DNA of 64,000 nucleotides from Candidatus Moranbacteria bacterium GW2011_GWC2_40_12 (GCA_000995965.1 LBYD01000001.1:12923-76922), one strand, 5' to 3'; counted from the stretch's first letter, positions 5,651 through 31,270 are shown. Translations and numbers: made by a program. The notes: generated by a model not told the origin, from the sequence alone.

Positions 5651-6610
5651 ATGAACATTCAGGAGAACATCCCTTTGGCTCAATATACAACCCTGAAAGT
5701 CGGCGGGGCGGCGAGGTTTTTTTGTGAAGCAAAAAATGAAGAGGAAATTTCGGGAGCGGTGAAATTTGCCGAAGAAAAAAAACTGCCGGTTTTTGTGCTG
5801 GGCGGCGGAAGCAATATTTTGGTGAGCGACAAAGGGTTTGACGGAGTCGTTATACGACTCCGAAATTCGCAATTAGTAATTCGCAATTTGGATATTATTT
5901 GTCACGGTGGCTGCCAATTGAGTAAAGCCGTCAGTGAAAGCGTAAAAGCCGGCCTCACCGGCCTCGAGTGGGCGGCGGGGATTCCGGGAATGGTTGGGGG
6001 CGCGGTTTGGGGGAATGCGGGGGCGCCTTGGGGCTCGATGGCGGACTGTGTGGAATCTGTAAAAGTTTTGGATAAAAAAGATTTACGATTTAAGATTTAC
6101 GATTTAAAAAAATGCGATTTTGAATACAGAAACAGTATCTTTAAGCGAAATTCGAATTTGGTAATTTTATCTGTTAGCTTAAAGCTGAAAAAAGGCAAAA
6201 AAGAAGAAAGCGAAAAAAGAGTGAAAGAAATTTTGGCTCAAAGGAAAGAAAAGCAGCCCATGGATTTTCCTAGTTCGGGAAGCTTTTTTGCCAATCCCAC
6301 GATAAAAGATCAGAAAGTGATTAGTGAATTTGAAAGAGAAACGAATACGAAAGTAAAAGATAATAAAAATTTATACCAGAATTCCGGTTCGGAAGTAAAA
6401 ATACCCGCGGCTTATCTGATTGAAGAAGCCGGACTCAAGGGTAAAAAAATAGGCGGGGCGCAGGTGAGCGAAAAGCACGCAAATTTTCTGGTGAACGCGG
6501 GAAACGCGAAGGCGGAAGATTTCATCATCCTTGCCGCGGTCATCAAAACGCGCGTCCGAAACAAATTCGGCATCCAGCTCAGAGAAGAAGTGCAGATGGT
6601 GGGATTTTGA
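5651..6610 (+). CDS. murB: UDP-N-acetylenolpyruvoylglucosamine reductase MurB
   Basis: NIPLAQYTTLKVGGAARFF...VLGGGSNIL FAD-binding N-terminus and a MurB C-terminus. The start was chosen at ATG 5651, in frame with track ORF 5561..6610. It contains family A-like in-frame insertions. Confidence 0.85.
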   Translation: MNIQENIPLAQYTTLKVGGAARFFCEAKNEEEISGAVKFAEEKKLPVFVLGGGSNILVSDKGFDGVVIRLRNSQLVIRNLDIICHGGCQLSKAVSESVKAGLTGLEWAAGIPGMVGGAVWGNAGAPWGSMADCVESVKVLDKKDLRFKIYDLKKCDFEYRNSIFKRNSNLVILSVSLKLKKGKKEESEKRVKEILAQRKEKQPMDFPSSGSFFANPTIKDQKVISEFERETNTKVKDNKNLYQNSGSEVKIPAAYLIEEAGLKGKKIGGAQVSEKHANFLVNAGNAKAEDFIILAAVIKTRVRNKFGIQLREEVQMVGF

Positions 6611-6612
6611 AG

Positions 6613-6708
6613 TCATTACGAATTACTAATTCGCTTTGCTCTACGAATATACAAATTACGAATATTTTTGAATTTGTATATTCGTATAAGATTCGTAGTT
6701 CGTAAAGG
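6613..6708. repeat. Family A palindromic element (TACGAAT-type)
   Basis: cattacgaattactaattcgc...ctacgaatatacaaattacgaat / attcgtataagattcgtagttcgtaa. Left arms TTACGAAT x n, right arms ATTCGTA x n. Confidence 0.75.
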
Positions 6709-6737
6709 TTTACATTTTTCCAAAAAAAAATTATAAT
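6709..6737 (+). promoter_or_regulatory. sigma70-like promoter: TTTACA -N17- TATAAT, about 25 nt upstream of the DHS-like gene
   Basis: tttaca(6709-6714) + 17-nt spacer + tataat(6732-6737), read from the sequence. Confidence 0.5.
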
Positions 6738-6762
6738 TTAGAAGATATATTTTCTGAAAAAA

Positions 6763-7860
6763 ATGAAAGAAAAAAAATCTAAATTTAAAAAAATAGACGA
6801 AGCGTATGAGACAAAGCGCGATCTGAAGCATGACGGATTTTCCGATAACCTGAAACCGATTTCTTCGCTTGATTTGGGAAAAGCCGGGAACGTGGATGAG
6901 CTGGTGCGCGGAATGTCAAAGACCGCTTTCGGCGGAAGGAATCTCGGCGAAGCGGCGGATGTTCTCGAAGCGATGGTCCGTGACAAAGATTGCTTTGTCG
7001 TGCTGACGCTTTCCGGAGCAATGACGGTGGCAAAGATGGGCCTTTTGATTTGCGATATGATTGATCGCGGAATGGTGAACGCTGTTGTCTCAACAGGAGC
7101 GCTCATGACCCATGGCATGGTTGAGGGTTTTGGCATGAGCCACTTCAAGTATGACGAGGAAATGGACGATGAAAAACTTTACGCGTGCGGATATAACCGG
7201 GTTTATGACACGCTGGAACTTGAAAAAAATCTGGACGATCTGGAACTCATTGTATTCGAAGTTTTCAAAAGCCTGGATCATAAAAAAGTATATTCGAGCA
7301 ATGAAATCTTGAATGAAGTCGGAAAATATCTCCAAAAAAATACAGACAAAGAAAGAGCGATTCTCAAAAGCGCTTATGAAAAAAAAGTCCCGATATATAT
7401 TCCGGCCTTCACGGATTCTGAATTTTTTCTTGATATCGGGATCTTCAATCGGCGACAGAAACTTGAAAAGAAACCAATTCTGAACACAAGCGAATATCTG
7501 GACCTCGAACACTTCACGGAACTGATCAAAAAACAGAAAAAAATCGGTATTTTCACGATTGGCGGCGGTGTGCCGCGAAATTGGGCCCAGCAAGTGACAT
7601 GTTATCTCGACCTTATCGGGAAACGAGTGGGAGTCGGCGGAAAATTTTTGCGCTACAGTTATGGCGTCCGAATTTCCCCCGAGCCGGTGCACTGGGGCGG
7701 CCTCTCCGGATGCACGTATTCCGAAGGAGTGTCTTGGGGAAAAATGGTTCCTCCCAAAGAAGGCGGGCGCTTCGCCGAAGTTTATTGCGACGCGACGATC
7801 GCCTGGCCTATAATTTTGAAGGCGGTGATGGAACGGCTGGATAAAAAGTCTGGAAAATAG
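6763..7860 (+). CDS. deoxyhypusine synthase-like protein (DHS / homospermidine synthase family)
   Basis: CFVVLTLSGAMTVAKMGLL...MVNAVVSTGALMTHGMVEGFG, IGGGVPRNWAQQ and a C-terminal VYCDATIAWPIILKAV match the DHS family pattern. Confidence 0.75.
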   Translation: MKEKKSKFKKIDEAYETKRDLKHDGFSDNLKPISSLDLGKAGNVDELVRGMSKTAFGGRNLGEAADVLEAMVRDKDCFVVLTLSGAMTVAKMGLLICDMIDRGMVNAVVSTGALMTHGMVEGFGMSHFKYDEEMDDEKLYACGYNRVYDTLELEKNLDDLELIVFEVFKSLDHKKVYSSNEILNEVGKYLQKNTDKERAILKSAYEKKVPIYIPAFTDSEFFLDIGIFNRRQKLEKKPILNTSEYLDLEHFTELIKKQKKIGIFTIGGGVPRNWAQQVTCYLDLIGKRVGVGGKFLRYSYGVRISPEPVHWGGLSGCTYSEGVSWGKMVPPKEGGRFAEVYCDATIAWPIILKAVMERLDKKSGK

Positions 7861-7975
7861 TTGTATGAAGTTTGAAATTGGTAATGGAGAATAGAAAATT
7901 GAAATTCGTGACAATTTTCCAGTTTCAAATTTCCATTACAATTTTCCATTCTCTAAAAACAAATTTCAGATGATT
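7861..7975. repeat. Family B palindromic intergenic element
   Basis: gaaattggtaatggagaatagaaaattgaaattcgtgacaattttccagtttcaaatttccattacaattttccattctc, a long imperfect inverted repeat. Confidence 0.65.
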
Positions 7976-8022
7976 ACACAGTAAATATCTCAATCTTGAC
8001 ATGCAAAATAATATTCAGATTT

Positions 8023-8910
8023 ATGGATAAAAATCTTTACGAACAATGGCCGTTTAATTTTGGTTCGATCCATGAACAGGATTTTGAAAAGGCGAAAATT
8101 GTGATCGCGCAGATTCCCTATGACGCGACGAGCTCTTATGGAACCGGACAGCGAAACGGGCCCTTCGCGATCCTCAATGCGTCGCGCTATGTTGATGAGC
8201 TTTTGGACGCGCACGAAGGAAAATTGATCGGCCTCGAGCCAACTGACGTTTTCACGCTGGATGAAATTGTTGTTTCGCGAAACAGCGTTCCGGAAGCGAT
8301 GGCCGGAATTGAACAGGCAATCGAAAAAGAAATAGTTTCAAAAAACAAAAAACCGCTTGTTCTCGGCGGAGAGCATTCTATCACTTTTGGCGTCGTGAAA
8401 GCGCTCAAGAAAAAATACAAAGATTTATCGGTTTTGCAATTCGACGCGCATACGGATCTTTTGAACGAATATGAGGGCAGTAAACACTCCCACGCCTCGG
8501 TGATGCGGCGTATCCTTGATGAGGGAATTTCTTGTGCCCAAGTGGGAATCCGGAACATGAACGCGGAAGTTCAGGATTATATTTCGACGAACAAAAAACA
8601 CGCCAAAAATATCCATTTCGCGCCCGGAATCCCGCCGGTCGAAAATATTTTGAAAGGCCTCACAAAAAATGTTTATCTCACTTTTGATCTCGACGTTCTT
8701 GATCCGTCCATCATGCCGGCGGTCGGGACAGCCGAGCCGGGAGGGTTATACTGGAACGAAACAGTTGAGGCGATTGAAAAAATAAGCCAGAAAGTGAATA
8801 TCGTCGGCGCGGACGTGGTGGAACTTTGCCCGATTCCCGGCCTTGAAGCGCCAAATTTCTTGGCGGCGAAGCTGGTATATGAAATAATCAAAGCCATCTT
8901 GGCAAAATAA
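8023..8910 (+). CDS. speB: agmatinase / ureohydrolase family (arginase fold)
   Basis: GGEHSITFGVV, QFDAHTDL and TFDLDVLDPS Mn-binding motifs. The start was placed at ATG 8023, in frame with track ORF 7996..8910. Confidence 0.8.
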   Translation: MDKNLYEQWPFNFGSIHEQDFEKAKIVIAQIPYDATSSYGTGQRNGPFAILNASRYVDELLDAHEGKLIGLEPTDVFTLDEIVVSRNSVPEAMAGIEQAIEKEIVSKNKKPLVLGGEHSITFGVVKALKKKYKDLSVLQFDAHTDLLNEYEGSKHSHASVMRRILDEGISCAQVGIRNMNAEVQDYISTNKKHAKNIHFAPGIPPVENILKGLTKNVYLTFDLDVLDPSIMPAVGTAEPGGLYWNETVEAIEKISQKVNIVGADVVELCPIPGLEAPNFLAAKLVYEIIKAILAK

Positions 8911-8919
8911 CACAACCTG

Positions 8920-9504
8920 ATGGCGAGCAAAAATTTTGGAAAAGAATATTTTCGTTCCGGTTCGTATGAAGACTATAAAAAAGAAGCCGAACGGTGGGTG
9001 CCAAAAACTGCCCGGAAAATAAATAAAATTATCAGCAATAAACCGGCGAAGATCTTGGATGTCGGGTGCGCGCATGGGTACTTGATTGCCGAGCTCCAGA
9101 ATAAACATGGACATAGCGTGCGAGGGGTTGATTATTCGCCGTATGCCGTCAAAAATTCAGAAAAATCCGTTCGGGGAAAAATAAAGAGAGGAAATATTCA
9201 AAAACTAAATTTTCGGAAAAATGAGTTTGATGCCGTGATTTGTTTGGATGTAATAAATTACCTGGAAGAAAATAATATCCCAAAAGCCATTCAAAATCTG
9301 GCGGGAGTCTCGAAGAAATACATTTTTTTTGGCGCGATATTCAAGCATTCCTGGACGGCGAGCCAAAAATGGAATCCGGACAAGTTTCGGAAAAGCGTCC
9401 TCGCGAAAAAAGAATACATTGAAATTTTCAAGAAATACGGAGCAAAGTTTGCGGAAAGTTTCGATGGGGAAAATGGAGGTTCAATACTAGTGCTAAAGAA
9501 GTAA
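8920..9504 (+). CDS. class I SAM-dependent methyltransferase
   Basis: ILDVGCAHGYL (motif I), then VICLDVINYL. Lies 10 nt after the agmatinase stop. Confidence 0.7.
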   Translation: MASKNFGKEYFRSGSYEDYKKEAERWVPKTARKINKIISNKPAKILDVGCAHGYLIAELQNKHGHSVRGVDYSPYAVKNSEKSVRGKIKRGNIQKLNFRKNEFDAVICLDVINYLEENNIPKAIQNLAGVSKKYIFFGAIFKHSWTASQKWNPDKFRKSVLAKKEYIEIFKKYGAKFAESFDGENGGSILVLKK

Positions 9505-9522
9505 ATTTTGAAGATAACATAA

Positions 9523-10818
9523 ATGGCAAACGGCAACGGAGCGAAAAATTTCCTTTTTGTTTCCTGGATCGCCCTCAACGGCGATTTGGCCTGGAAAGTA
9601 AAAAAAGAAAACCATAACGTCAAATACTATATCGACGACAAAGAAGAAGCGGATGTCTATGACGGCCTTTTGGAAAAAGTGGACAAGTGGCGGGATCATA
9701 TCGGCTGGGCGGACGTGATTATTTTTGATGATACCGGATTCGGAGAAGAAGCGGAAAAACTCCGGAAAAAGGGGAAACTGGTTATCGGCGGGACGGTATA
9801 TACTGACCGGACGGAAGAAGACCGGGAATTCGGGCAGGGAGAAATGAAAAAATTCGGGATGAACATCCTGCCGAATTATAATTTCTCAAGCTTTGACGAA
9901 GCCATCGAATTTTTGAAAAAAAATCCCGGCCGCTATGTTTTCAAGCCCAATGGCAAGGCGGCGGATGAAAAAAATCTTCTTTTTATCGGTGAAGAGGACG
10001 ACGGGAAGGATATGATTGAAATTCTTGAAGACAACAAAGATTTTCTTTCCGGAAAAATTGAAAGTTTTCAGCTTCAAAAATTCGTAGCCGGGGTGGAGAT
10101 TGCGACTGGAGCCTTTTTCAACGGAAAAAAATTCGTCCATCCGATAAACATAAATTTTGAGCACAAAAGGCTTTTTCCGGGCGATCAGGGGCCTTTCACG
10201 GGCGATATGGGAGCGCTGATGTATTGGACGACTCCCAACGCGATCTATAACAATACTCTTCTTAAAATGGAAAGCGTGCTGGCTGAGCATGGCTATGTCG
10301 GCTACTATGACATAAACTGCATCGTGAACGGGCGGGGAATATACCCGCTCGAATTCACGGCCCGTTTCGGATATCCGACCATCAGCACGCAGGTGGAAGG
10401 AATCATCGAGCCGATGGGAGAGTTTCTTTTGAAATTGGCGCGGGGCGAAGATTTTGAAATCAAGACGAAAAGAGGCTTTCAAATCGGCGTGGTTTTGGCG
10501 GTTCCTCCTTATCCTTTCTTTAGCGAAGAAATATTTTCTGTCTATAAGGGATCTTCTATTCTGTTCAAAAACGAAGCGGCGATGGAAGGCATCAATTGGG
10601 GGGACGTGAAAATGACGGACGGAGTTTTGAAGTTGGCGGGGTCGTCCGGATACGCGCTCATTGTCACCGGTTCGGGAATCACGGTGGAGGACGCCCGGCG
10701 CCAAGCCTATAACCGGATAAAGAACATCCGGCTCCACGACATGTTTTTTCGCGTGGATATCGGCACAAGATGGTTTCAGGACAGCGATAAACTGCAGTCG
10801 TGGGGATACATACAATAA
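9523..10818 (+). CDS. PurD-like ATP-grasp ligase (phosphoribosylamine--glycine ligase homolog)
   Basis: Segments alignable to E. coli PurD: FEHKRLFPGDQGPFTGDMGALMYWT (PurD [21 protein letters not shown]), YPLEFTARFGYPT (EFNCRFGDPE), and a C-terminal ...EDARRQAYNRIKNIRLHDMFFRVDIG (...AEAQKRAY...CRKDIG). Confidence 0.7.
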   Translation: MANGNGAKNFLFVSWIALNGDLAWKVKKENHNVKYYIDDKEEADVYDGLLEKVDKWRDHIGWADVIIFDDTGFGEEAEKLRKKGKLVIGGTVYTDRTEEDREFGQGEMKKFGMNILPNYNFSSFDEAIEFLKKNPGRYVFKPNGKAADEKNLLFIGEEDDGKDMIEILEDNKDFLSGKIESFQLQKFVAGVEIATGAFFNGKKFVHPININFEHKRLFPGDQGPFTGDMGALMYWTTPNAIYNNTLLKMESVLAEHGYVGYYDINCIVNGRGIYPLEFTARFGYPTISTQVEGIIEPMGEFLLKLARGEDFEIKTKRGFQIGVVLAVPPYPFFSEEIFSVYKGSSILFKNEAAMEGINWGDVKMTDGVLKLAGSSGYALIVTGSGITVEDARRQAYNRIKNIRLHDMFFRVDIGTRWFQDSDKLQSWGYIQ

Positions 10819-10876
10819 ATGAAAAATTAAAAATTATTGTGTCGCGGAGCGACTTTACTATTAATACATTGAGAAT

Positions 10877-11395
10877 ATGATGCAAAATGTTCAAGTGTTG
10901 AAAATTACAAGAACTAAAGAAATAATTTTTTCTGCCGTTTTTACGGCGTTAGCGATTTATGCGCCGATGGTTGTCCATCACTTCGCGGGCGTGGACGGCG
11001 GGCGGAAATTTTTGCCGATGCCTTTTTTTGTTTTGCTCGCGGGGCTGACTCTCGGCTGGCGGGCGGGGATTGCAGCCGGACTCGCGAGCCCGGTTATAAG
11101 CTTCCTTCTTTCCGGAATGCCGATGCTCAATATTTTGCCGATTATTATCATACAGCTCTCCGCTTACGGTTTTTTGGCGGGGATATTGAAAGAAAAGTTC
11201 AACGGATTCATAGCACCTGCTGGCGCGATAGTTCTTGGCCTTATTTTGACCGGTTTTGCGGTTTTTTTATTTTCAGAAATGAATGCCGCGGCGTATGTTA
11301 TAAATGCCGTAAGGGATGGCTGGGTTGGAATTGCTCTCCAACTTCTTATTTTGCCGATTATTATAAAGTTTTCTAGAGATTATTTATTCGACTAA
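10877..11395 (+). CDS. small polytopic membrane protein (ECF-transporter S-component-like?)
   Basis: 172 aa with 5-6 predicted TM helices. The family assignment is tentative. Confidence 0.35.
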   Translation: MMQNVQVLKITRTKEIIFSAVFTALAIYAPMVVHHFAGVDGGRKFLPMPFFVLLAGLTLGWRAGIAAGLASPVISFLLSGMPMLNILPIIIIQLSAYGFLAGILKEKFNGFIAPAGAIVLGLILTGFAVFLFSEMNAAAYVINAVRDGWVGIALQLLILPIIIKFSRDYLFD

Positions 11396-11447
11396 TTTTC
11401 AGGGTAGTCATTTTTATCTACGTGGATATAACTGACTACTTTTAATT

Positions 11448-11849
11448 ATGACTGTAAAATATAATCTCGAATACTTTTTTGAGAAATCCTGGTCTTTTGT
11501 TTTGATGAAAAACGGGAAAATCGTTTTCAAGTCAAAAGCGCAGCATCTCAAGCCTTTGATATTTTGCATCAAAAGACATAAAAAAGAAATGCGCGGGGCG
11601 GTTGTTTTTGATAAGATTATCGGACAAGCGGCGGCGATATTTCTTGTTTATGCCAAAGTTAAAGAAGTTTGGACACCAACCATCAGCCGGTCTGGAAAAG
11701 CCTGTCTTGAGAAGCATAATGTGAAAATTGACTACAAAAATCTCGTCAGTTGCATAAAGAACCGCAAAGGCGATGATCTCTGCCCGATGGAAAAAATGAG
11801 CCGAAAAATGACAAAAAAAGAGTTTATTGAAAAAAAATTGGAAAATTAG
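11448..11849 (+). CDS. hypothetical protein (133 aa)
   Basis: ORF with no recognisable motif. Confidence 0.4.
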   Translation: MTVKYNLEYFFEKSWSFVLMKNGKIVFKSKAQHLKPLIFCIKRHKKEMRGAVVFDKIIGQAAAIFLVYAKVKEVWTPTISRSGKACLEKHNVKIDYKNLVSCIKNRKGDDLCPMEKMSRKMTKKEFIEKKLEN

Positions 11850-17872: not shown

Positions 17873-18586
17873 GTGAAGCTGAAATTATGTTTTGATTCCA
17901 AGTCGGCGCGGGAAAATCCAAGCATAAGCCAAACAGCTTCAAAATATGGCGATTAGCATCAATTTAGTGGTTGCTAATTGCTGGTCTGTATCGTTCGCAC
18001 TCAAATGCGAGCGATGCAATTGCGATAGAGCGGTATTCATGAAGGGCGTATGGTGGATGCCTTGACTCAAGTGAGCGATGAAGGACGTAGCGATCTGCGA
18101 TAAGCCTCGGGGAGCTGATGAGCAAGCTTTGATCCGGGGATTTCCGAATGCGGCAACGCATCTCGATTCATATCGGGATATTACTGTCTGAATTCATAGG
18201 ACAGTGAAGCGTACCCAGGGAACTGAAACATCTTAGTACCTGGAGGAAAATAAATCCAAAAGATTCCGTCAGTAGTGGCGAGCGAAAGCGGAGAAGCCTA
18301 AACCGTTTCACTTCGGTGAAGCGGGGTTGCGAGATAATAACGTCCTATCTTGTAAAACGTTGAATATAGTTGTCAGCGTTTTACTCGACGGGAGTGAAGT
18401 TACAAATTGTTTTGTTAGCTGAACAATTCTGGAAAGTGAGACCAAAGAGGGTAATAGTCCCGTAAGCGAAAACGAAACAACTTTATTGTTATTATTCTCA
18501 AGTAAGGCGGGACCGGAGAAATCCCGTCTGAAGCCGGGGCCACTATAGCTCCAAGGCTAAATATCACTTGAGATCGATAGCGAACT

Positions 18587-18617
<31 letters not shown>

Positions 18618-20242
18618 GATGAGGGGAGTGAAATAGAACTGAAACCATATGCTTACGTAGAGTTGGAGCCCCGACGCAAGTCGGGGTGACAGCGTGCTTT
18701 TTGCAGAACGAGCCAACGAGTTAATTTTATGCGGCAAGTTTAACCCAGCATTGAATTTATAAAGTAAAAAACTTTAAGGAGGTTCCACAGTGGGAGACAA
18801 AAAGGAAATGAAATTATGGTTAATCATCCTTAGTTGTCCCTTTTTATGGTATATGGCAATAGCTTTAATATTGTCATATTTCTAAAGATAGAGGATCTCT
18901 ACGGCGTGGCGTGCGGAAATACTTCGTGCGCCCGCCGCAACTTTATAAGTTTGATGCTGGGGAAAACGTAGTGAAAGCGAGGCTTAATCGCCGAAAATAA
19001 GTCGCATGGATTAGACCCGAAGCCGGGCGAGCTACATATGAGCAGGGTGAACGCAGAGTAACATCTGCGGGAGGCCCGAACCCACGCGCCGTACAACACG
19101 CGGGGATGACTTGTGTGTAGAGGAGAAATTCCAATCGAGCTCGGCCATAGCTGGTTCTTCCCGAAATAGCTTGAGGGCTAGCGTCGGATAAATGATCACA
19201 GGAGGTAGAGCTACTGAATGAGGGATCGTGGAGCAATCCTAGGTCTCTCAACCAAACTCCGAATGCCTGATGATTTTATCCCGACAGTCAGAACGTGGGG
19301 GCTAAGCTTCACGTTCGAGAGGGAAACAGCCCAGATCGCAGTCTAAGGTCCCTAAATCTATGTTAAGTGGTAAAGGAAGTGAAGTCTCCGAGACACCTAG
19401 GAGGTTGGCTCAGAAGCAGCCATCCTTTAAAGAGTGCGTAACAGCTCACTAGTCTAGAGATTTCGCGCCGAAAATTCAACGGGGCTCAAACATAGTACCG
19501 AAGACGCGGACTCCAGCGCTTGCGCTGGTTTGGTAGGGAAGTGTCCTCATCTGCTGCGAAGCGGAAGGCGTGAGCCACCGTGGAGCGTTGAGGAGTAAGA
19601 ATGTTGGCATGAGTAACCGCAATGTGAGTGAGAACCTCACACGCCGAAAGTCCAAGGTTTCCTGGGCAATGTCGATCAACCCAGGGTTAGGCGGTCCTAA
19701 GGCGAGGCCGAAAGGCGTAGTCGATGGACAGCCGGTTAATATTCCGGCCCCGCAATATTATTCGATGGAGTGACGTACTCTAGTAGTCTCTGCCCCTTAT
19801 TGGATTGGGGTAGGCGCATTGAGGACGTTCGCGAGGAAAATCCCGCGAGCACAAATCCAAGATGCGACTGGAAGTCCGATTTATCGGGCGAACGGAGATG
19901 AGCAGGGTACCAGGAAAAACTTCTAAGGTTAATAATATTGCGTCCGTACTTAAAACCGACACAGGTGGACAGGGCGAGTAGCCCAAGGCGAACGGGAGAA
20001 CCCTCGTTAAGGAACTCGGCAAAACAACTAGACGTAACTTCGGGAGATGTCTTCCCCGACGCAAGTCGGGGTGCAATTAAAGATTCCAAGCGACTGTTTA
20101 TCAAAAACACAGGTCTCCGCAAACCCGCAAGGGGAAGTATGGGGGCTGACGCCTGACCAGTGCTGGAACGTTAACGGGAGCGGTGCAAGCCAATCCCCGA
20201 AGCGCCAGTGAACGTCAGCGATAACTATAATCGTTCTAAGGT

Positions 20243-20527
20243 TGAGGACATTTGCAAAAGTGACCTCAAGGACTGGAACGATTATAGTGAAAGTGTGAAA
20301 ATCTAGTTGAAGAGTTCAAAAAAAATGAGACACAAAATAGCTGCTTCATTCTGCAGCAATGCAGAATTGGTCCTAAAATACATGGCTATATGCTGGGAAG
20401 TCCCGACTCGTCGGGATGATCAGCAGGGAAGGCCCCGACACAAGTCGGGGAACCCTCAGATACCATACGCCGTGCCCCCGGCATAATGTCGGGGAGAAGA
20501 TATGGTACATCGCCCAAAGGAGCGATC
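20243..20527 (+). mobile_element. ORF-less intron-like insertion in 23S at the E. coli ~1917 site (CTAAGGT | AGCGAAATTCC)
   Basis: The exon sequence is interrupted by about 285 nt. The insertion contains GNRA-type hairpins (ccccgacacaagtcgggg, ccccggcataatgtcgggg). Confidence 0.5.
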
Positions 20528-20549
20528 AGCGAAATTCCTTGTCAGGTAA

Positions 20550-21261
20550 TGATGTCAGATATTTGCCTGAATATCGCAGCAATGCGATAAAAGTAAACTG
20601 GCTAATAACGGTGAAGGCTAAATTTTGCGCAAGCAGGATATGCTAATACCGTGGGAAGTCCTTCGATGGATTATCGGAGTGACCCCGTAACGACTGAGGC
20701 GAAAGCCAAGATCCCGAAAAAACGGGATAACACGCCAGCGCTTATCAAATAAAAGAAACATATGGATTTTGCTTCTTATGTGACAGGCTTTATCGATGGC
20801 GAAGGATGCTTTTCAGTGTCTTTCAATTATCGAGAGAAGCTGAAAACTAAAATTGAGGTGCGTCCGAGCTTTGCAATCGGACAAAACAAGCGCAGCCTGG
20901 AAATTCTGAAAAAGATTCGCCAATTTTTCACTTGCGGATACATAAGATTTTCCAAAAGCGATCAATGCTTCAAGTATGAAGTGAGAAATATTGACGAATT
21001 GCGCAAATTCATAATCCCTCATTTTAGAAAGTTTCCCTTGATGACCACAAAAAAGGCGGATTTTGAAATATTTTCAATAATCTGCGGCAAAGTGGCGCAA
21101 ATGAAACATAGAAATTCAGAGCACTTGAAAGAAATTATTCAAATGGCTTTCAGGATGAATTGTTCTGGAAAAAGGAAATACAAAGAAGCAGAACTCCTAA
21201 GTGTTTTAGATAAGCTGAAGATATAGTCTGATTTTTCGCGAAAGCGATCAAACGAAATGAA
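20550..21261 (+). mobile_element. group I intron with a LAGLIDADG ORF at the 23S E. coli ~1931 site (GGGTAA | GTTCCGACC)
   Basis: The exon ends at ...cttgtcaggtaa and resumes at (a)gttctgacccgca. It shares ctaataacggtgaa and ataccgtgggaagtc blocks with the second intron. Confidence 0.7.
20762..21226 (+). CDS. LAGLIDADG homing endonuclease (intron-encoded)
   Basis: YVTGFIDGEGCFSVSF N-terminal LAGLIDADG motif. 154 aa, inside a 23S intron. Confidence 0.85.
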   Translation: MDFASYVTGFIDGEGCFSVSFNYREKLKTKIEVRPSFAIGQNKRSLEILKKIRQFFTCGYIRFSKSDQCFKYEVRNIDELRKFIIPHFRKFPLMTTKKADFEIFSIICGKVAQMKHRNSEHLKEIIQMAFRMNCSGKRKYKEAELLSVLDKLKI

Positions 21262-21914
21262 GTTCTGACCCGCATTAAAGGCGTAACGACTCGGAAACTG
21301 TCTCAACGAGGGACCCGGTGAAATCGCAATGGCAGTGAAGATGCTGCCGACCTACGGCAAGACGAAAAGACCCCGTGGAGCTTTACTACAACTTGGTATT
21401 GGGTTGTGATTTTAGCTGCCTAGCATAGGTGGGAGGCTTTGAAGCCTCGACTTCGGTCGAGGTGGAGCCGCCAGTGTAATACCACCCTGCTGAAGTCGCA
21501 ATTCTAACCCTGGTCTGTTAGTTGAATTATATAATTTTCAATTGATGGTACTCGGAACAAGAGTAAAGAATTCACATGAGAGTATCATCGATGATGATTA
21601 TAATTTTCACTATACCCAAAATATATAATTCAGCTACCAGACCGGGGACAGTGCCTGGTGGGTAGTTTGACTGGGGCGGTCGCCTCCCAAAAGGTAACGG
21701 AGGCGTTTACAAAGGTTGGCTAGCTCCGGATGGAAATCGGAGCGATAGCGCAAACGCAAAAGCCAGCTTTACTGGAAGACCCATAAGTCGACCAGTCACG
21801 AAAGTGGAAGTTAGTGAACCGACCATCGCTTGTAGGAGCGTGGAAGATCATCAGATAAAAGTTACCCCGGGGATAACAGGCTTATTCCTCCCAAGAGTTC
21901 ACATCGACGGAGGA

Positions 21915-21972
<58 letters not shown>

Positions 21973-22015
21973 TGGCTGTTCGCCAATTAAAGCGGTACGC
22001 GAGCTGGGTTCAACG

Positions 22016-22778
22016 TAGGCGCCGTTGCTTGAGAAGAGTCTTTCTTAGTAAGAAAATTGCTACTTTTTCGAGTAATCGAAATTGAAAATCCGACTAATAA
22101 CGGTGAAACCTTCATAAAATTGTGGCCAATTGAGCTTATTTCTTTGCGGTCCAGAGAAAATATGCTAGAATAAACTTACTTGAGGACCATAATTTTATAA
22201 GGCAATACCGTGGGAAGTCGTCCCAAAACTAATTTAGCTTATATAGCTGGTTTTCTTGACGGAGACGGAAGCCTGATGATGCAAATAAAAAAACGAAGCG
22301 ATAACCAAAAAAATCGCTTTATGCTCACAATTTGCATGTATCAGGACACTCGTCATGAAAAACCGTTGCTTTGGATCAGAAAAGAACTTGAAATTGGATA
22401 CATCTGCCGGAGAAACGACAATATTACGGAACTGCGGGTGAATGGCTACCAGCAGGTGGAAAGAATATTAAAATTATTGATTCCGTATATCAAGTTCAAG
22501 AAAATCCAAGCCGTAACATTGCTGAAATCCGCGAAAATTCTTCGTAAAAAAAAATTTTCTCAAAGAGATTTGAGAAAATTAGTTGACTATATTCTGGCGA
22601 TTCAAAAAGAAAATTATGTCTCGCGAAGAAAGAAAAGCAAAAAAGAGCTAATGAAAATTTTAGGATTGACCCCGTAACGACTTTGGTCCGACGTCACGTC
22701 GGACCAGAATAGCGAGTTAATAAAAAATCTAAACCGCTATAATATGTCGGCCCCGCCCAAATTTCTTCGAAAATTGCG
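22016..22778 (+). mobile_element. group I intron with a LAGLIDADG ORF at the 23S I-CreI-type site (E. coli ~2593; GGGTTCAACGT | CGTGAGACAG-like)
   Basis: The exon ...gagctgggttcaacgt is interrupted and the downstream exon resumes near cgggtgaagatatagtctgggccc (divergent). Boundaries are approximate. Confidence 0.65.
22210..22677 (+). CDS. LAGLIDADG homing endonuclease (intron-encoded)
   Basis: LAYIAGFLDGDGSLMMQI LAGLIDADG motif. 155 aa, inside a 23S intron. Confidence 0.85.
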   Translation: MGSRPKTNLAYIAGFLDGDGSLMMQIKKRSDNQKNRFMLTICMYQDTRHEKPLLWIRKELEIGYICRRNDNITELRVNGYQQVERILKLLIPYIKFKKIQAVTLLKSAKILRKKKFSQRDLRKLVDYILAIQKENYVSRRKKSKKELMKILGLTP

Positions 22779-22887
22779 GCGGGTGAAGATATAGTCTGGG
22801 CCCGCAGAAATGCGGGATTACAACCGACGAGAGGACCGGAAAGAACGAACCTCTGGTGTACCAGTTGATCCTGCCAAGGGCAATGCT

Positions 22888-22925
<38 letters not shown>

Positions 22926-23269
22926 ATAAGCGGGAAGCCCACTTCAAGATTAGGCAACTCTAGTGCTTGCACTAGATGGCTTCCTGGGAGATGACCAGGT
23001 TGATAGGCTTCAGGTGTAAGTGCGGCAACGCATTGAGCCGAGAAGTACTAATAAGCCGAAGAATATCCTCTATCGTTACTTCCGCCCAAATTTTTTGCGA
23101 AAAAAATTTAGGCGGATTCGACCAGCAATTAGGAGTCACTAAAATCTCAATGAAAGATTGCAAACAGAGTTTTATTTTGGCATTTTCTGTTTTGGCTGTT
23201 ATTGTTTTATCGGTTGTTTTTTTCATATTCACATCTCCAGTGATCAAAGCGTTCTAAGGTTTGAGCTTA

Positions 23270-23385
23270 TTGTTCCTAGTGCTTCTAGCGACAGGGTCAC
23301 ACCCGATCCCATCCCGAACTCGGCAGTTAAGCCTGTCAGCGCCGATGGTAGCCGCAAGGTGAGAGTAGGCCAGTGCTAGGAACAA
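23270..23385 (+). rRNA. rrf: 5S ribosomal RNA
   Basis: CCCGATCCCATCCCGAACTCGGCAGTTAAGC...GCCGATGGTAGC core. The termini ttgttcctag / ctaggaacaa pair as helix I. 116 nt. Confidence 0.8.
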
Positions 23386-30850: not shown

Positions 30851-31270
30851 ATGAAAAACGAAAAGTTGGGGGGCGGGGAAACCTGCACCTTTGGGGTACA
30901 CCTTACCCTAGATGGTTACGGGGGAAGTCCGGAAAAGCTCAACGATCCAAAACGGATCGAAAAAGCGCTCATCGAGCTTACGGATAAACTGGGAATGGAG
31001 AGAATGATGGAGCCAGTAGTGAAATACGCCGAACCGCGAAACATCAAAGACAGCGGCGGATATTCGGGCTTCGTGATGATCGTCGAGTCTCATATCAGCA
31101 TCCATACCTTTCCCAAGAAAAGGTTTGTAAGCATCGACGCCTACACCTGCAAGGACATAATGGACAAGGATACGGTCGTAAGATACTTCAAGAAAATGTT
31201 TGGTCTTGAAGACACAGAAGTTCAGTTTTTCAAGCGCGGTCTCAAATTTCCTTCGCAGGATTTGGTTTAA
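30851..31270 (+). CDS. speH: pyruvoyl-dependent decarboxylase proenzyme, SpeH class (S-adenosylmethionine decarboxylase or its arginine decarboxylase paralog)
   Basis: FVMIVESHISIHTFP (self-cleavage ES|H serine) and SIDAYTCKD, typical of archaeal/bacterial class 1b AdoMetDC. Confidence 0.75.
   Translation: MKNEKLGGGETCTFGVHLTLDGYGGSPEKLNDPKRIEKALIELTDKLGMERMMEPVVKYAEPRNIKDSGGYSGFVMIVESHISIHTFPKKRFVSIDAYTCKDIMDKDTVVRYFKKMFGLEDTEVQFFKRGLKFPSQDLV

Follow-up and report, generated by a model that had tools for sequence, protein, structure and literature searches.

Which product would be made by an operon that encodes, one behind the other, a deoxyhypusine synthase (DHS) homologue, an agmatinase-family ureohydrolase, a methyltransferase and a PurD-like ligase? 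Such an operon is present in a 64,000-nucleotide (nt) stretch of DNA, hereafter the window, of Candidatus Moranbacteria bacterium GW2011_GWC2_40_12 (GCA_000995965.1 LBYD01000001.1:12923-76922). A preliminary description of this DNA had proposed two functions, (i) a hypusine-like modification of EF-P or another translation factor or (ii) a polyamine-tailoring pathway, and had considered neither to be characterised in this context. [quoted passage not shown] We read the operon as a SpeY-type homospermidine module to which genes for two uncharacterised enzymes have been added. Taken as a whole, it is likely to be a polyamine operon, composed of a SpeY core (genes 1 and 2) and two accessory genes (genes 3 and 4). 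For the gene 1/2 pair the claim of novelty is out of date, since such pairs have been described (PMC10981699, PMC13625781).

The operon and its core pair

The four open reading frames (ORFs) are co-directional and located on the plus strand, at positions 6763-7860 (gene 1), 7996-8910 (gene 2), 8920-9504 (gene 3) and 9523-10818 (gene 4). They encode (i) a SpeY-like DHS homologue (365 aa, PF01916), predicted to couple two agmatines as a synthase of N1,N9-bis(guanidino)homospermidine (G44G), (ii) an agmatinase-family ureohydrolase (TIGR01230), predicted to act on G44G (diagmatine), (iii) a class I S-adenosylmethionine (SAM)-dependent methyltransferase (194 aa, Methyltransf_25/11) and (iv) an ATP-grasp ligase (431 aa, GARS_A and GARS_C) of a PurD-like but distinct paralogue family. 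Pfam and NCBIfam profile searches bear out the family originally assigned to each of the four proteins. The ORF of gene 2 opens with a TTG codon at 7996 (304 aa); translation probably begins at the ATG at 8023 (8023-8910, 295 aa), because alignments with orthologues begin only at residue 8-12. The gaps between the genes measure 135-162 nt (genes 1/2), 9 nt (2/3) and 18 nt (3/4), so that the close spacing reported previously holds, with a trivial correction of the figures of 10 and 19 nt. A sigma-70-like promoter (TTTACA-N17-TATAAT, 6709-6737, plus strand), which agrees with the consensus at 11 of 12 positions, was confirmed in front of gene 1. Its end lies 25 nt upstream of the ATG at 6763, and it is the top-scoring site of the region 6400-11500; as a class, promoter-like sites are not enriched there (12 versus 7.4 ± 3.1 in shuffled sequences).

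The deoxyhypusine synthase (DS) domain of gene 1 is full length (PF01916, 1.7e-78, profile positions 1-287 of 288). The protein was aligned with human DHS, the index positions of which were checked, and was compared with the assayed SpeY enzymes by means of the residue numbers given in PMC10981699. The catalytic lysine, the presence of which had been proposed as a check, is retained as Lys327 (human K329, CdmS K299) in the motif EGVSWGK. Also kept are the guanidino-binding Glu321 (E323; CdmS E293), Trp325 (W327), the GGG of residues 267-269 (human G282-284) and the Asp of the NAD site. The spermidine site is altered relative to the human enzyme: D316 and H288 are replaced by Leu314 and Asn273, with D243 kept. 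Leu314 occupies the position of Leu286 of CdmS, the DHS homologue of Thermus, and the L-7-E-6-K spacing is identical in the two proteins. In CdmS, Phe204 and Leu286 replace human Asp243 and Asp316, and the catalytic Lys299 is retained (PMC10981699).

The product of gene 2 belongs to the Arginase family (PF00491), and its score of 228 bits exceeds the cut-off of the agmatinase equivalog TIGR01230 (174). Its metal-ligand motifs (GGEHS, DAHTD, DLDVLDP and DVVEL), aligned with those of the solved agmatinases 3lhl and 3pzl, are intact. A preference for G44G, for which no sequence signature has been published, is suggested by analogy with the ureohydrolases linked to SpeY (PMC13625781).

The chemistry of such pairs is documented in other bacteria. 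Kobayashi et al. (2024) found that CdmS joins two agmatines to form bis-guanidino homospermidine, which a ureohydrolase converts into homospermidine (PMC10981699). Li et al. (2026) reported that SpeY homologues of five further phyla all produce G44G; with the Thermus enzyme included, seven bacterial SpeY proteins (six of them from the five phyla) have been assayed, and all seven formed G44G from agmatine (PMC13625781). Homospermidine was obtained from them only with agmatinase present, and human and plant DHS formed no G44G (PMC13625781). The SpeY-linked agmatinase homologues are G44G-specific ureohydrolases that are inactive on agmatine, and the SpeY clusters contain arginine decarboxylases (ADCs) of three unrelated folds (PMC13625781). 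Clusters of the type SpeDA-speY-speB, including one in a Woesearchaeota (DPANN) archaeon, were described by Li et al. in 2023 (PMC10407285).

The contexts of the orthologues of the gene 1/2 pair (58-78% identity) agree with this chemistry, as genes for arginine decarboxylases, of two different folds, stand beside them. The 78% identical orthologues (Portnoybacteria/WWE3 type; loci L096 and L100) are found in the order murB-HPF-ADC of the alanine racemase (AR) fold-DS-small membrane protein-arginase-family gene-x-secA. The order in locus L101 (65% identity) is murC-murB-HPF-PvlArgDC (pyruvoyl ArgDC)-DS-x-arginase-family gene-ECF_S-TM1506, i.e. the neighbourhood of the window plus a decarboxylase and minus genes 3 and 4. 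An AR-fold ADC also precedes the DS and agmatinase (AGM) genes in L035, and the Moranbacteria-like locus L006 has the order SpeE-SpeD-DS-AGM-ligase. Because ADC genes flank the pair in relatives and neither EF-P nor aIF5A genes were found in the loci, we read genes 1 and 2 as an agmatine-dependent homospermidine (SpeY/ureohydrolase) pathway, an assignment that we regard as highly probable.

The families, catalytic residues and gene contexts given above are observations; the chemistry of the pair would be that of the characterised homologues. With NAD+ and Lys327, the SpeY/CdmS-type enzyme would oxidise one agmatine and hold the 4-guanidinobutyl group as an enzyme-imine. Transfer of this group onto a second agmatine would generate G44G ("caldomycin"), from which the ureohydrolase would strip two ureas to give sym-homospermidine. 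Homospermidine chemistry by the DHS homologue had been foreseen in the preliminary description, and this part stands; the formation of putrescine by the agmatinase as a first step does not, as the ureohydrolase would act afterwards, on the bis-guanidino product. The core pair would extend the agmatine-to-homospermidine SpeY route to CPR bacteria. The biosynthetic capacity of these organisms is very small, and a polyamine pathway retained in them hints at what their hosts cannot supply.

Several observations count against the assignment of the core pair. Leu at the position of human D316 is also present in the archaeal DHS structures 8put and 7cmc, and is therefore non-discriminating. Asp224, the residue aligned with human D243 and CdmS Phe204, stands beside a one-residue indel, with Phe221 and Phe222 close by. 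Gene 1 remains under every NCBIfam equivalog cut-off: the best model is NF002006 ("DHS"), with 277 bits (cut-off 434), versus 218 bits for the G44G-synthase model (cut-off 500). Judged by its sequence, it belongs to a clade from CPR, DPANN and Omnitrophica that is without an NCBIfam model of its own, and 62-69% identical members of this clade, in Woesearchaeota and Omnitrophica, have no ureohydrolase nearby. Moreover, no arginine decarboxylase of the AR fold, the PvlArgDC type or the aspartate aminotransferase (AAT) fold is recognisable in the window.

Agmatine would probably come from a decarboxylase encoded elsewhere, and could alternatively be taken up from the host. The sole candidate in the window is a solitary homologue of SpeD, a pyruvoyl AdoMet decarboxylase (30851-31270, plus strand; PF02675, 5e-27). 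This protein only just exceeds the cut-off of TIGR03330 (78.7 bits versus 75.65), compared with 132.8 bits for a SpeE-linked copy, and it carries the motif ESHISIHTFPKK, with HTFPKK at the place where SpeE-linked copies have HTWPE. Neofunctionalised SpeD homologues that act on arginine or ornithine have been documented, also in CPR and DPANN (PMC10407285), and the sequence of the window's copy makes it probably a candidate for an enzyme of this type. It could be an ornithine decarboxylase, which would speak against an agmatine route. Searches of the window for SpeE and for other types of ornithine decarboxylase found none.

The ligase, the methyltransferase and their gene neighbourhoods

Gene 4 has the fold of PurD and fails PurD membership; by its sequence it is not a glycinamide ribonucleotide (GAR) synthetase. 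The protein scores 113 bits against TIGR00877 (PurD; cut-off 288), and Pfam detects GARS_A and GARS_C, with GARS_N not detected. The AlphaFold model has a predicted local distance difference test (pLDDT) score of 73, with the C-terminal third low. Its top 15 Foldseek matches are PurD structures (E 1e-20 to 1e-17, TM 0.63-0.70, 15-24% identity), followed by PurK. The glycine residues of PurD are, in human numbering, Asp217, Arg292, Asp295 and Glu297, and the proposed phosphoribosylamine (PRA) site comprises Arg13 and Glu14 (Welin et al., PMC2978367). The sole survivor of these in the ligase is Arg292 (Arg281); D295, E297 and D217 are replaced by Tyr284, Thr286 and Glu213, and R13/E14 by Leu18/Asn19 (Ser19 in most members of the family). 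Likewise, the motifs EFN and TGGMG are changed to EFT and TGEMG. The resulting signature (EHK, E-x-T-x-R-x-x-[Y/W/F] and TGEMG) was found in 40 members of the ligase family with 27-93% identity, originating from CPR, archaea, Halorussus, Polaromonas and phage contigs. At the position of D295 these have Tyr, Trp or Phe, and at that of E297 a non-acidic residue; two PurDs included in the same alignment have the canonical residues. The acidic residues D21, D64, D69, D70, E213 and D228 of the ligase are invariant.

The ligase family is large, with more than 6000 matches in a word-indexed search, 486 clusters at 50% identity (E <= 1e-30) and 52-93% identity across Parcubacteria-type CPR and Woesearchaeota. 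It ranks among the best-conserved proteins that CPR and DPANN have in common, and public databases name it as a purine enzyme ("phosphoribosylamine--glycine ligase" in NCBI and JGI). We found no description, in the literature searched, of a PurD-like CPR/DPANN family or of a link between ATP-grasp enzymes and polyamines.

Inteins typically occupy conserved sites of important proteins. Some members of the ligase family (among them P0297 and P0299) reach 750-1120 aa because of inteins (one or two, recognised by Hint, Intein_splicing and LAGLIDADG domains), inserted at residue ~231-234 and at residue ~280, the latter site being the conserved active-site motif E-F-T-x-R-F-G-Y. In another protein (P0364, 1236 aa), the PurD-like ligase is fused between a phage portal domain and a Mu F-like head protein. 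Relatives with 27-41% identity and the same non-PurD signature are encoded among virion structural genes in 33 IMG/VR contigs (L110-L142); no polyamine genes were found near them in these 33 contigs. A distant homologue is present as a solitary gene in Halorussus. In the cultured betaproteobacterium Polaromonas aquatica (L108/L109, 7228-10887), a 35% identical homologue is preceded by a gene for an MTS-type methyltransferase, not homologous to that of the window, with overlapping stop and start codons, and is followed by a gene for a Haem_oxygenas_2 (diiron oxygenase-like) protein; together these genes resemble a small biosynthetic cassette, and the organism is a tractable one. The contexts of the distant homologues (Halorussus, Polaromonas and viral contigs) give no clue to the function of the ligase.

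Gene 3 matches Methyltransf_25 (1.7e-15) and Methyltransf_11 (5.5e-15), with no specific NCBIfam model above its cut-off. Its family is small (55 homologue clusters) and restricted to Parcubacteria-type CPR. Outside Moranbacteria, homologues occur in clusters with polyamine genes and the ligase (L016, L104 and L105) and beside the ligase alone (L057). Three distant members, those of L104, L105 and L106, were looked at. A 42% identical homologue in L106 (2532-6630) follows genes for an 802-aa LAL-type ATP-grasp protein and an MR_MLE epimerase; because of this neighbour, the gene 3 family can be said to accompany ATP-grasp ligases of two kinds.

The gene order DS-AGM-(MT)-ligase-ECF_S-DUF1893, in which MT denotes the methyltransferase gene, is conserved in Moranbacteria. 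The four genes had been expected to stay together in relatives; within Moranbacteria this is true of DS, AGM and the ligase, and not of the methyltransferase, which is missing from the close relatives L006 and L007. Outside Moranbacteria, the neighbours of the ligase were surveyed in an unbiased sample of 76 loci, comprising 135 immediate-neighbour slots. In five of the 76 loci the gene next to the ligase is a polyamine gene, and seven loci have one at a distance of up to about five genes. The five adjacent genes encode AGM (with an 8-nt overlap), SpeE (with a 16-nt overlap), SpeD, an ADC and a divergently transcribed archaeal DS.

In total, the gene orders in which the ligase adjoins polyamine genes number at least seven, and they cover two chemistries, one based on decarboxylated SAM and SpeE and the other on agmatine and SpeY. 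These orders include (i) murB-ligase-SpeE-SpeE-decarboxylase-SpeD-MT (L016 and L104), (ii) PvlArgDC-SpeD-SpeE-MT-ligase-AGM, with an arginase-family AGM (L105), (iii) ligase-ADC-SpeY-AGM (L035), (iv) ligase-AGM with the 8-nt overlap (L014), (v) ligase-SpeD-SpeD-SpeE (L015) and (vi) the ligase and an archaeal DS in divergent orientation (L055). In the ligase gene of L105 (3280-4572), an in-frame TAG takes the exact place of the TGG codon of the invariant Trp56, which could be a sequencing error, a sign of a pseudogene or a case of recoding. A gene for a small SET-domain protein recurs beside CPR ligases (six loci; L035, L020-L033), and a SET-domain gene is also located beside a 65% identical DS in an agmatinase-less Woesearchaeota contig (L094).

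With gene neighbourhoods as its basis, a functional link of genes 3 and 4 to polyamines is a tentative proposal, to which we give slightly less than an even chance. The competing explanation is that the two genes are not polyamine-related, the ligase being a housekeeping enzyme of CPR and DPANN, and that a shared syntenic block has brought them together, the four genes possibly being co-transcribed without forming one pathway; this we consider nearly as probable as its opposite. The great size and conservation of the ligase family fit such a role. In the survey, HPF (7), SET-domain (5), DUF192 (5) and LPG_synthase_C-like (5) genes are each about as frequent beside the ligase as all polyamine genes together (5), murB is found three times, and non-recurrent genes fill 104 of the 135 slots. 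Genes murB, HPF and secA flank the ligase as well as SpeY clusters; a conserved murB...HPF...secA block houses the ligase and the polyamine genes alike, and shared ancestry of gene order could be behind part of their adjacency. The polyamine-linked loci are mostly confined to one clade of the ligase tree, loci L096, L100 and L101 have an ADC-SpeY-ureohydrolase pathway with neither ligase nor methyltransferase, and distant relatives of the ligase occur in the unrelated contexts mentioned above (phage virion modules; solitary in Halorussus).

Shared synteny accounts less readily for other features of these loci. The gene order is shuffled while the adjacency is kept: the ligase is inside the cluster in L105 and before or after it elsewhere. 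L014 and L016 have overlapping coding sequences, two polyamine chemistries are represented among the partners, and in the DPANN archaeon L055 a DS gene stands beside the ligase. The methyltransferase family, outside Moranbacteria, was seen only in polyamine clusters or beside an ATP-grasp ligase.

If the link to polyamines is true, annotation would have to be corrected across thousands of protein-cluster entries, and ultra-small microbes would contain a new polyamine derivative. In the mechanism proposed, genes 3 and 4 would be co-transcribed accessories of the core pair. The ligase would activate a small carboxylate as an acyl-phosphate, as in the PurD/PurK/PurT group, and amidate a primary amine, either on the triamine or on an intermediate; methylation of the polyamine or its conjugate would fall to the methyltransferase. 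The specific version of this idea, that the ligase, along with the methyltransferase in those loci that have it, forms a polyamine-tailoring module for ATP-dependent acylation of homospermidine or spermidine plus methylation, appears doubtful, and we put it forward as a rather unlikely though specific possibility. Tailoring by methylation and ATP-grasp ligation had been suggested before: in its favour, the two enzymes recur in polyamine operons of other lineages, and to its detriment, the methyltransferase is missing from L006 and L007 and about 90% of the ligase loci are without a polyamine neighbour. If true, it would mean a new enzyme activity that is now mis-annotated as PurD, with a product important enough to keep the ligase 52-93% identical.

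Alternative assignments and the flanking region

For the core pair, a different substrate may be considered. The agmatinase would then form putrescine, and the DHS homologue would condense it with spermidine or with a second putrescine, in the manner of eukaryotic DHS and homospermidine synthase (HSS). Public annotation of the gene 1 protein (P0121) as "Homospermidine synthase (spermidine-specific)" and the TIGR01230 score of gene 2 fit this idea; spermidine could be available in L006, where SpeE and SpeD genes lie directly upstream of the pair, and the SpeD homologue of the window resembles ornithine-decarboxylase-type copies at some positions. We nevertheless judge it improbable, given that all SpeY proteins assayed make G44G and the linked ureohydrolases ignore agmatine (PMC13625781), that D316 and H288 are replaced, that the window has no SpeE, and that the orthologues cluster with arginine, not ornithine, decarboxylases.

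That gene 4 might be a genuine, divergent PurD (GAR synthetase), as in public records, is very improbable. The NCBI and JGI names agree with it, as do the best fold and sequence matches, which are PurD, and a PurL-like gene is present on one DS-carrying Woesearchaeota contig. Against this stand the low TIGR00877 score, the lack of GARS_N and the replacement of the glycine and PRA residues across the 40 members, and no other purine gene was found in 93 ligase loci.

The hypusine-like modification suggested initially, in which an amino- or guanidinobutyl group would be transferred onto a lysine of an EF-P-type factor and trimmed by the agmatinase, can be given hardly any credence: the catalytic Lys is kept, the clade includes 62-69% identical Woesearchaeota proteins that possibly serve aIF5A, a ribosome hibernation factor gene often neighbours the clusters and an unproven model exists for Haloferax aIF5A (PMC5178350), but flanking by ADC and ureohydrolase genes is the signature of a small-molecule pathway, D316 and H288 are changed, and neither the window nor any of 106 loci with DS or ligase genes was found to contain a gene for EF-P or aIF5A. 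The latter result was obtained by tblastn with EF-P of E. coli and B. subtilis and an archaeal IF5A as queries, the search covering, of this genome, the window only. To our knowledge, bacteria are without aIF5A, and we found no report of DHS-dependent modification of EF-P.

The outer neighbours of the operon are murC and murB upstream and genes for an energy-coupling factor (ECF) transporter S component (10877-11395, plus strand; Pfam), a DUF1893/TM1506 protein (11448-11849, plus strand; Pfam) and gyrB downstream. A peptidoglycan role suggested by the adjacency of murB and murC was rejected, as the mur genes are neighbours of the syntenic block in its entirety, and archaea and phages also have members of the ligase family. 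The ECF S component and DUF1893 genes are syntenic in Moranbacteria, always 3' of the cluster, and in L101 (9335-10256) the corresponding pair directly follows the ureohydrolase gene with overlapping stop and start codons. They may thus be members of the polyamine locus. The only hint to the substrate of the S component is a weak match to a folate-family S component.

Between the murB stop codon and the promoter of the operon there is a near-perfect long palindrome forming a strong hairpin (6611-6710, plus strand; -31.3 kcal/mol, z = -5.6), with folds as good in 0 of 200 shuffles. It is probably a terminator of the murB transcript or an operator. The AT-rich spacer between genes 1 and 2 (7861-8022, plus strand) contains an imperfect 31-nt inverted repeat at 7875-7965 (fold z = -2.6) and direct repeats spaced 27 nt. 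In the relatives L096, L100 and L101, its position is taken by a gene for an SMR-like membrane protein of ~110 aa. No Rfam family reached its threshold in 6400-11500 (E <= 1), where two spurious sub-threshold matches were obtained; the presence of a riboswitch or other known RNA was rejected for the leader and for the 162-nt spacer alike, the only match in the spacer being a spurious sub-threshold hairpin. Another candidate that was discarded is a terminator 3' of the ligase stop codon: a pattern scan gave a weak terminator-like hairpin (10841-10853, plus strand), the fold of which is no better than those of shuffled sequences (z = -0.56).

Elsewhere in the window, the 23S rRNA gene (within 18030-23381) spans 4036 nt, versus 2925 nt in the model, and thus contains an insertion of ~1.1 kb with a LAGLIDADG ORF (20762-21226). 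A second LAGLIDADG ORF (22210-22677) is located between the end of the 23S rRNA gene and the 5S rRNA gene (23275-23381). No tRNA genes were found across the window.

Comparison with known systems

The core pair shares with the SpeY/CdmS systems membership of the DHS superfamily, the catalytic Lys and Glu, Leu at the position of human D316 and a ureohydrolase gene directly next to it. As in those systems, close orthologues cluster with ADCs of different folds, and the host is a bacterium without aIF5A. It differs in that gene 1 belongs to an unassayed clade, falls below the equivalog cut-offs and has Asp at the position of CdmS Phe204, and in that the operon contains no decarboxylase gene but has genes for a methyltransferase and a PurD-like ligase. 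The running text of the SpeY paper, figures excluded, makes no mention of either of these two enzymes.

With archaeal and eukaryotic DHS, gene 1 has in common the fold and the NAD-dependent lysine-imine chemistry, and an agmatinase-like gene is linked to DHS in Euryarchaeota (PMC5178350). The DHS-agmatinase clustering in archaea cited in the preliminary description is correct for this group, where the aIF5A gene itself is part of the cluster (PMC5178350). By contrast, the cluster of gene 1 has no IF5A or EF-P gene nearby, D316 and H288 are replaced, and agmatine-making genes flank the orthologues.

The ligase resembles PurD, PurK and PurT in its three-domain ATP-grasp fold, in GARS_A and GARS_C, and in retaining the Lys, Glu and Arg (human Arg292) that belong to the acyl-phosphate machinery. 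It is set apart from PurD by the lack of a GARS_N detectable by Pfam, by the replaced glycine and PRA residues and by the absence of a purine-pathway context; in addition, its family extends to phage virion modules and includes intein-bearing members. A further parallel is provided by glutathionylspermidine/trypanothione synthetase, an ATP-grasp enzyme that forms an acyl-phosphate and then an amide bond to an amine of a polyamine. No sequence relationship between the two was seen; its likeness to the ligase is confined to the chemistry proposed here, and it would serve as a functional analogue of a ligase that acylates homospermidine or spermidine.

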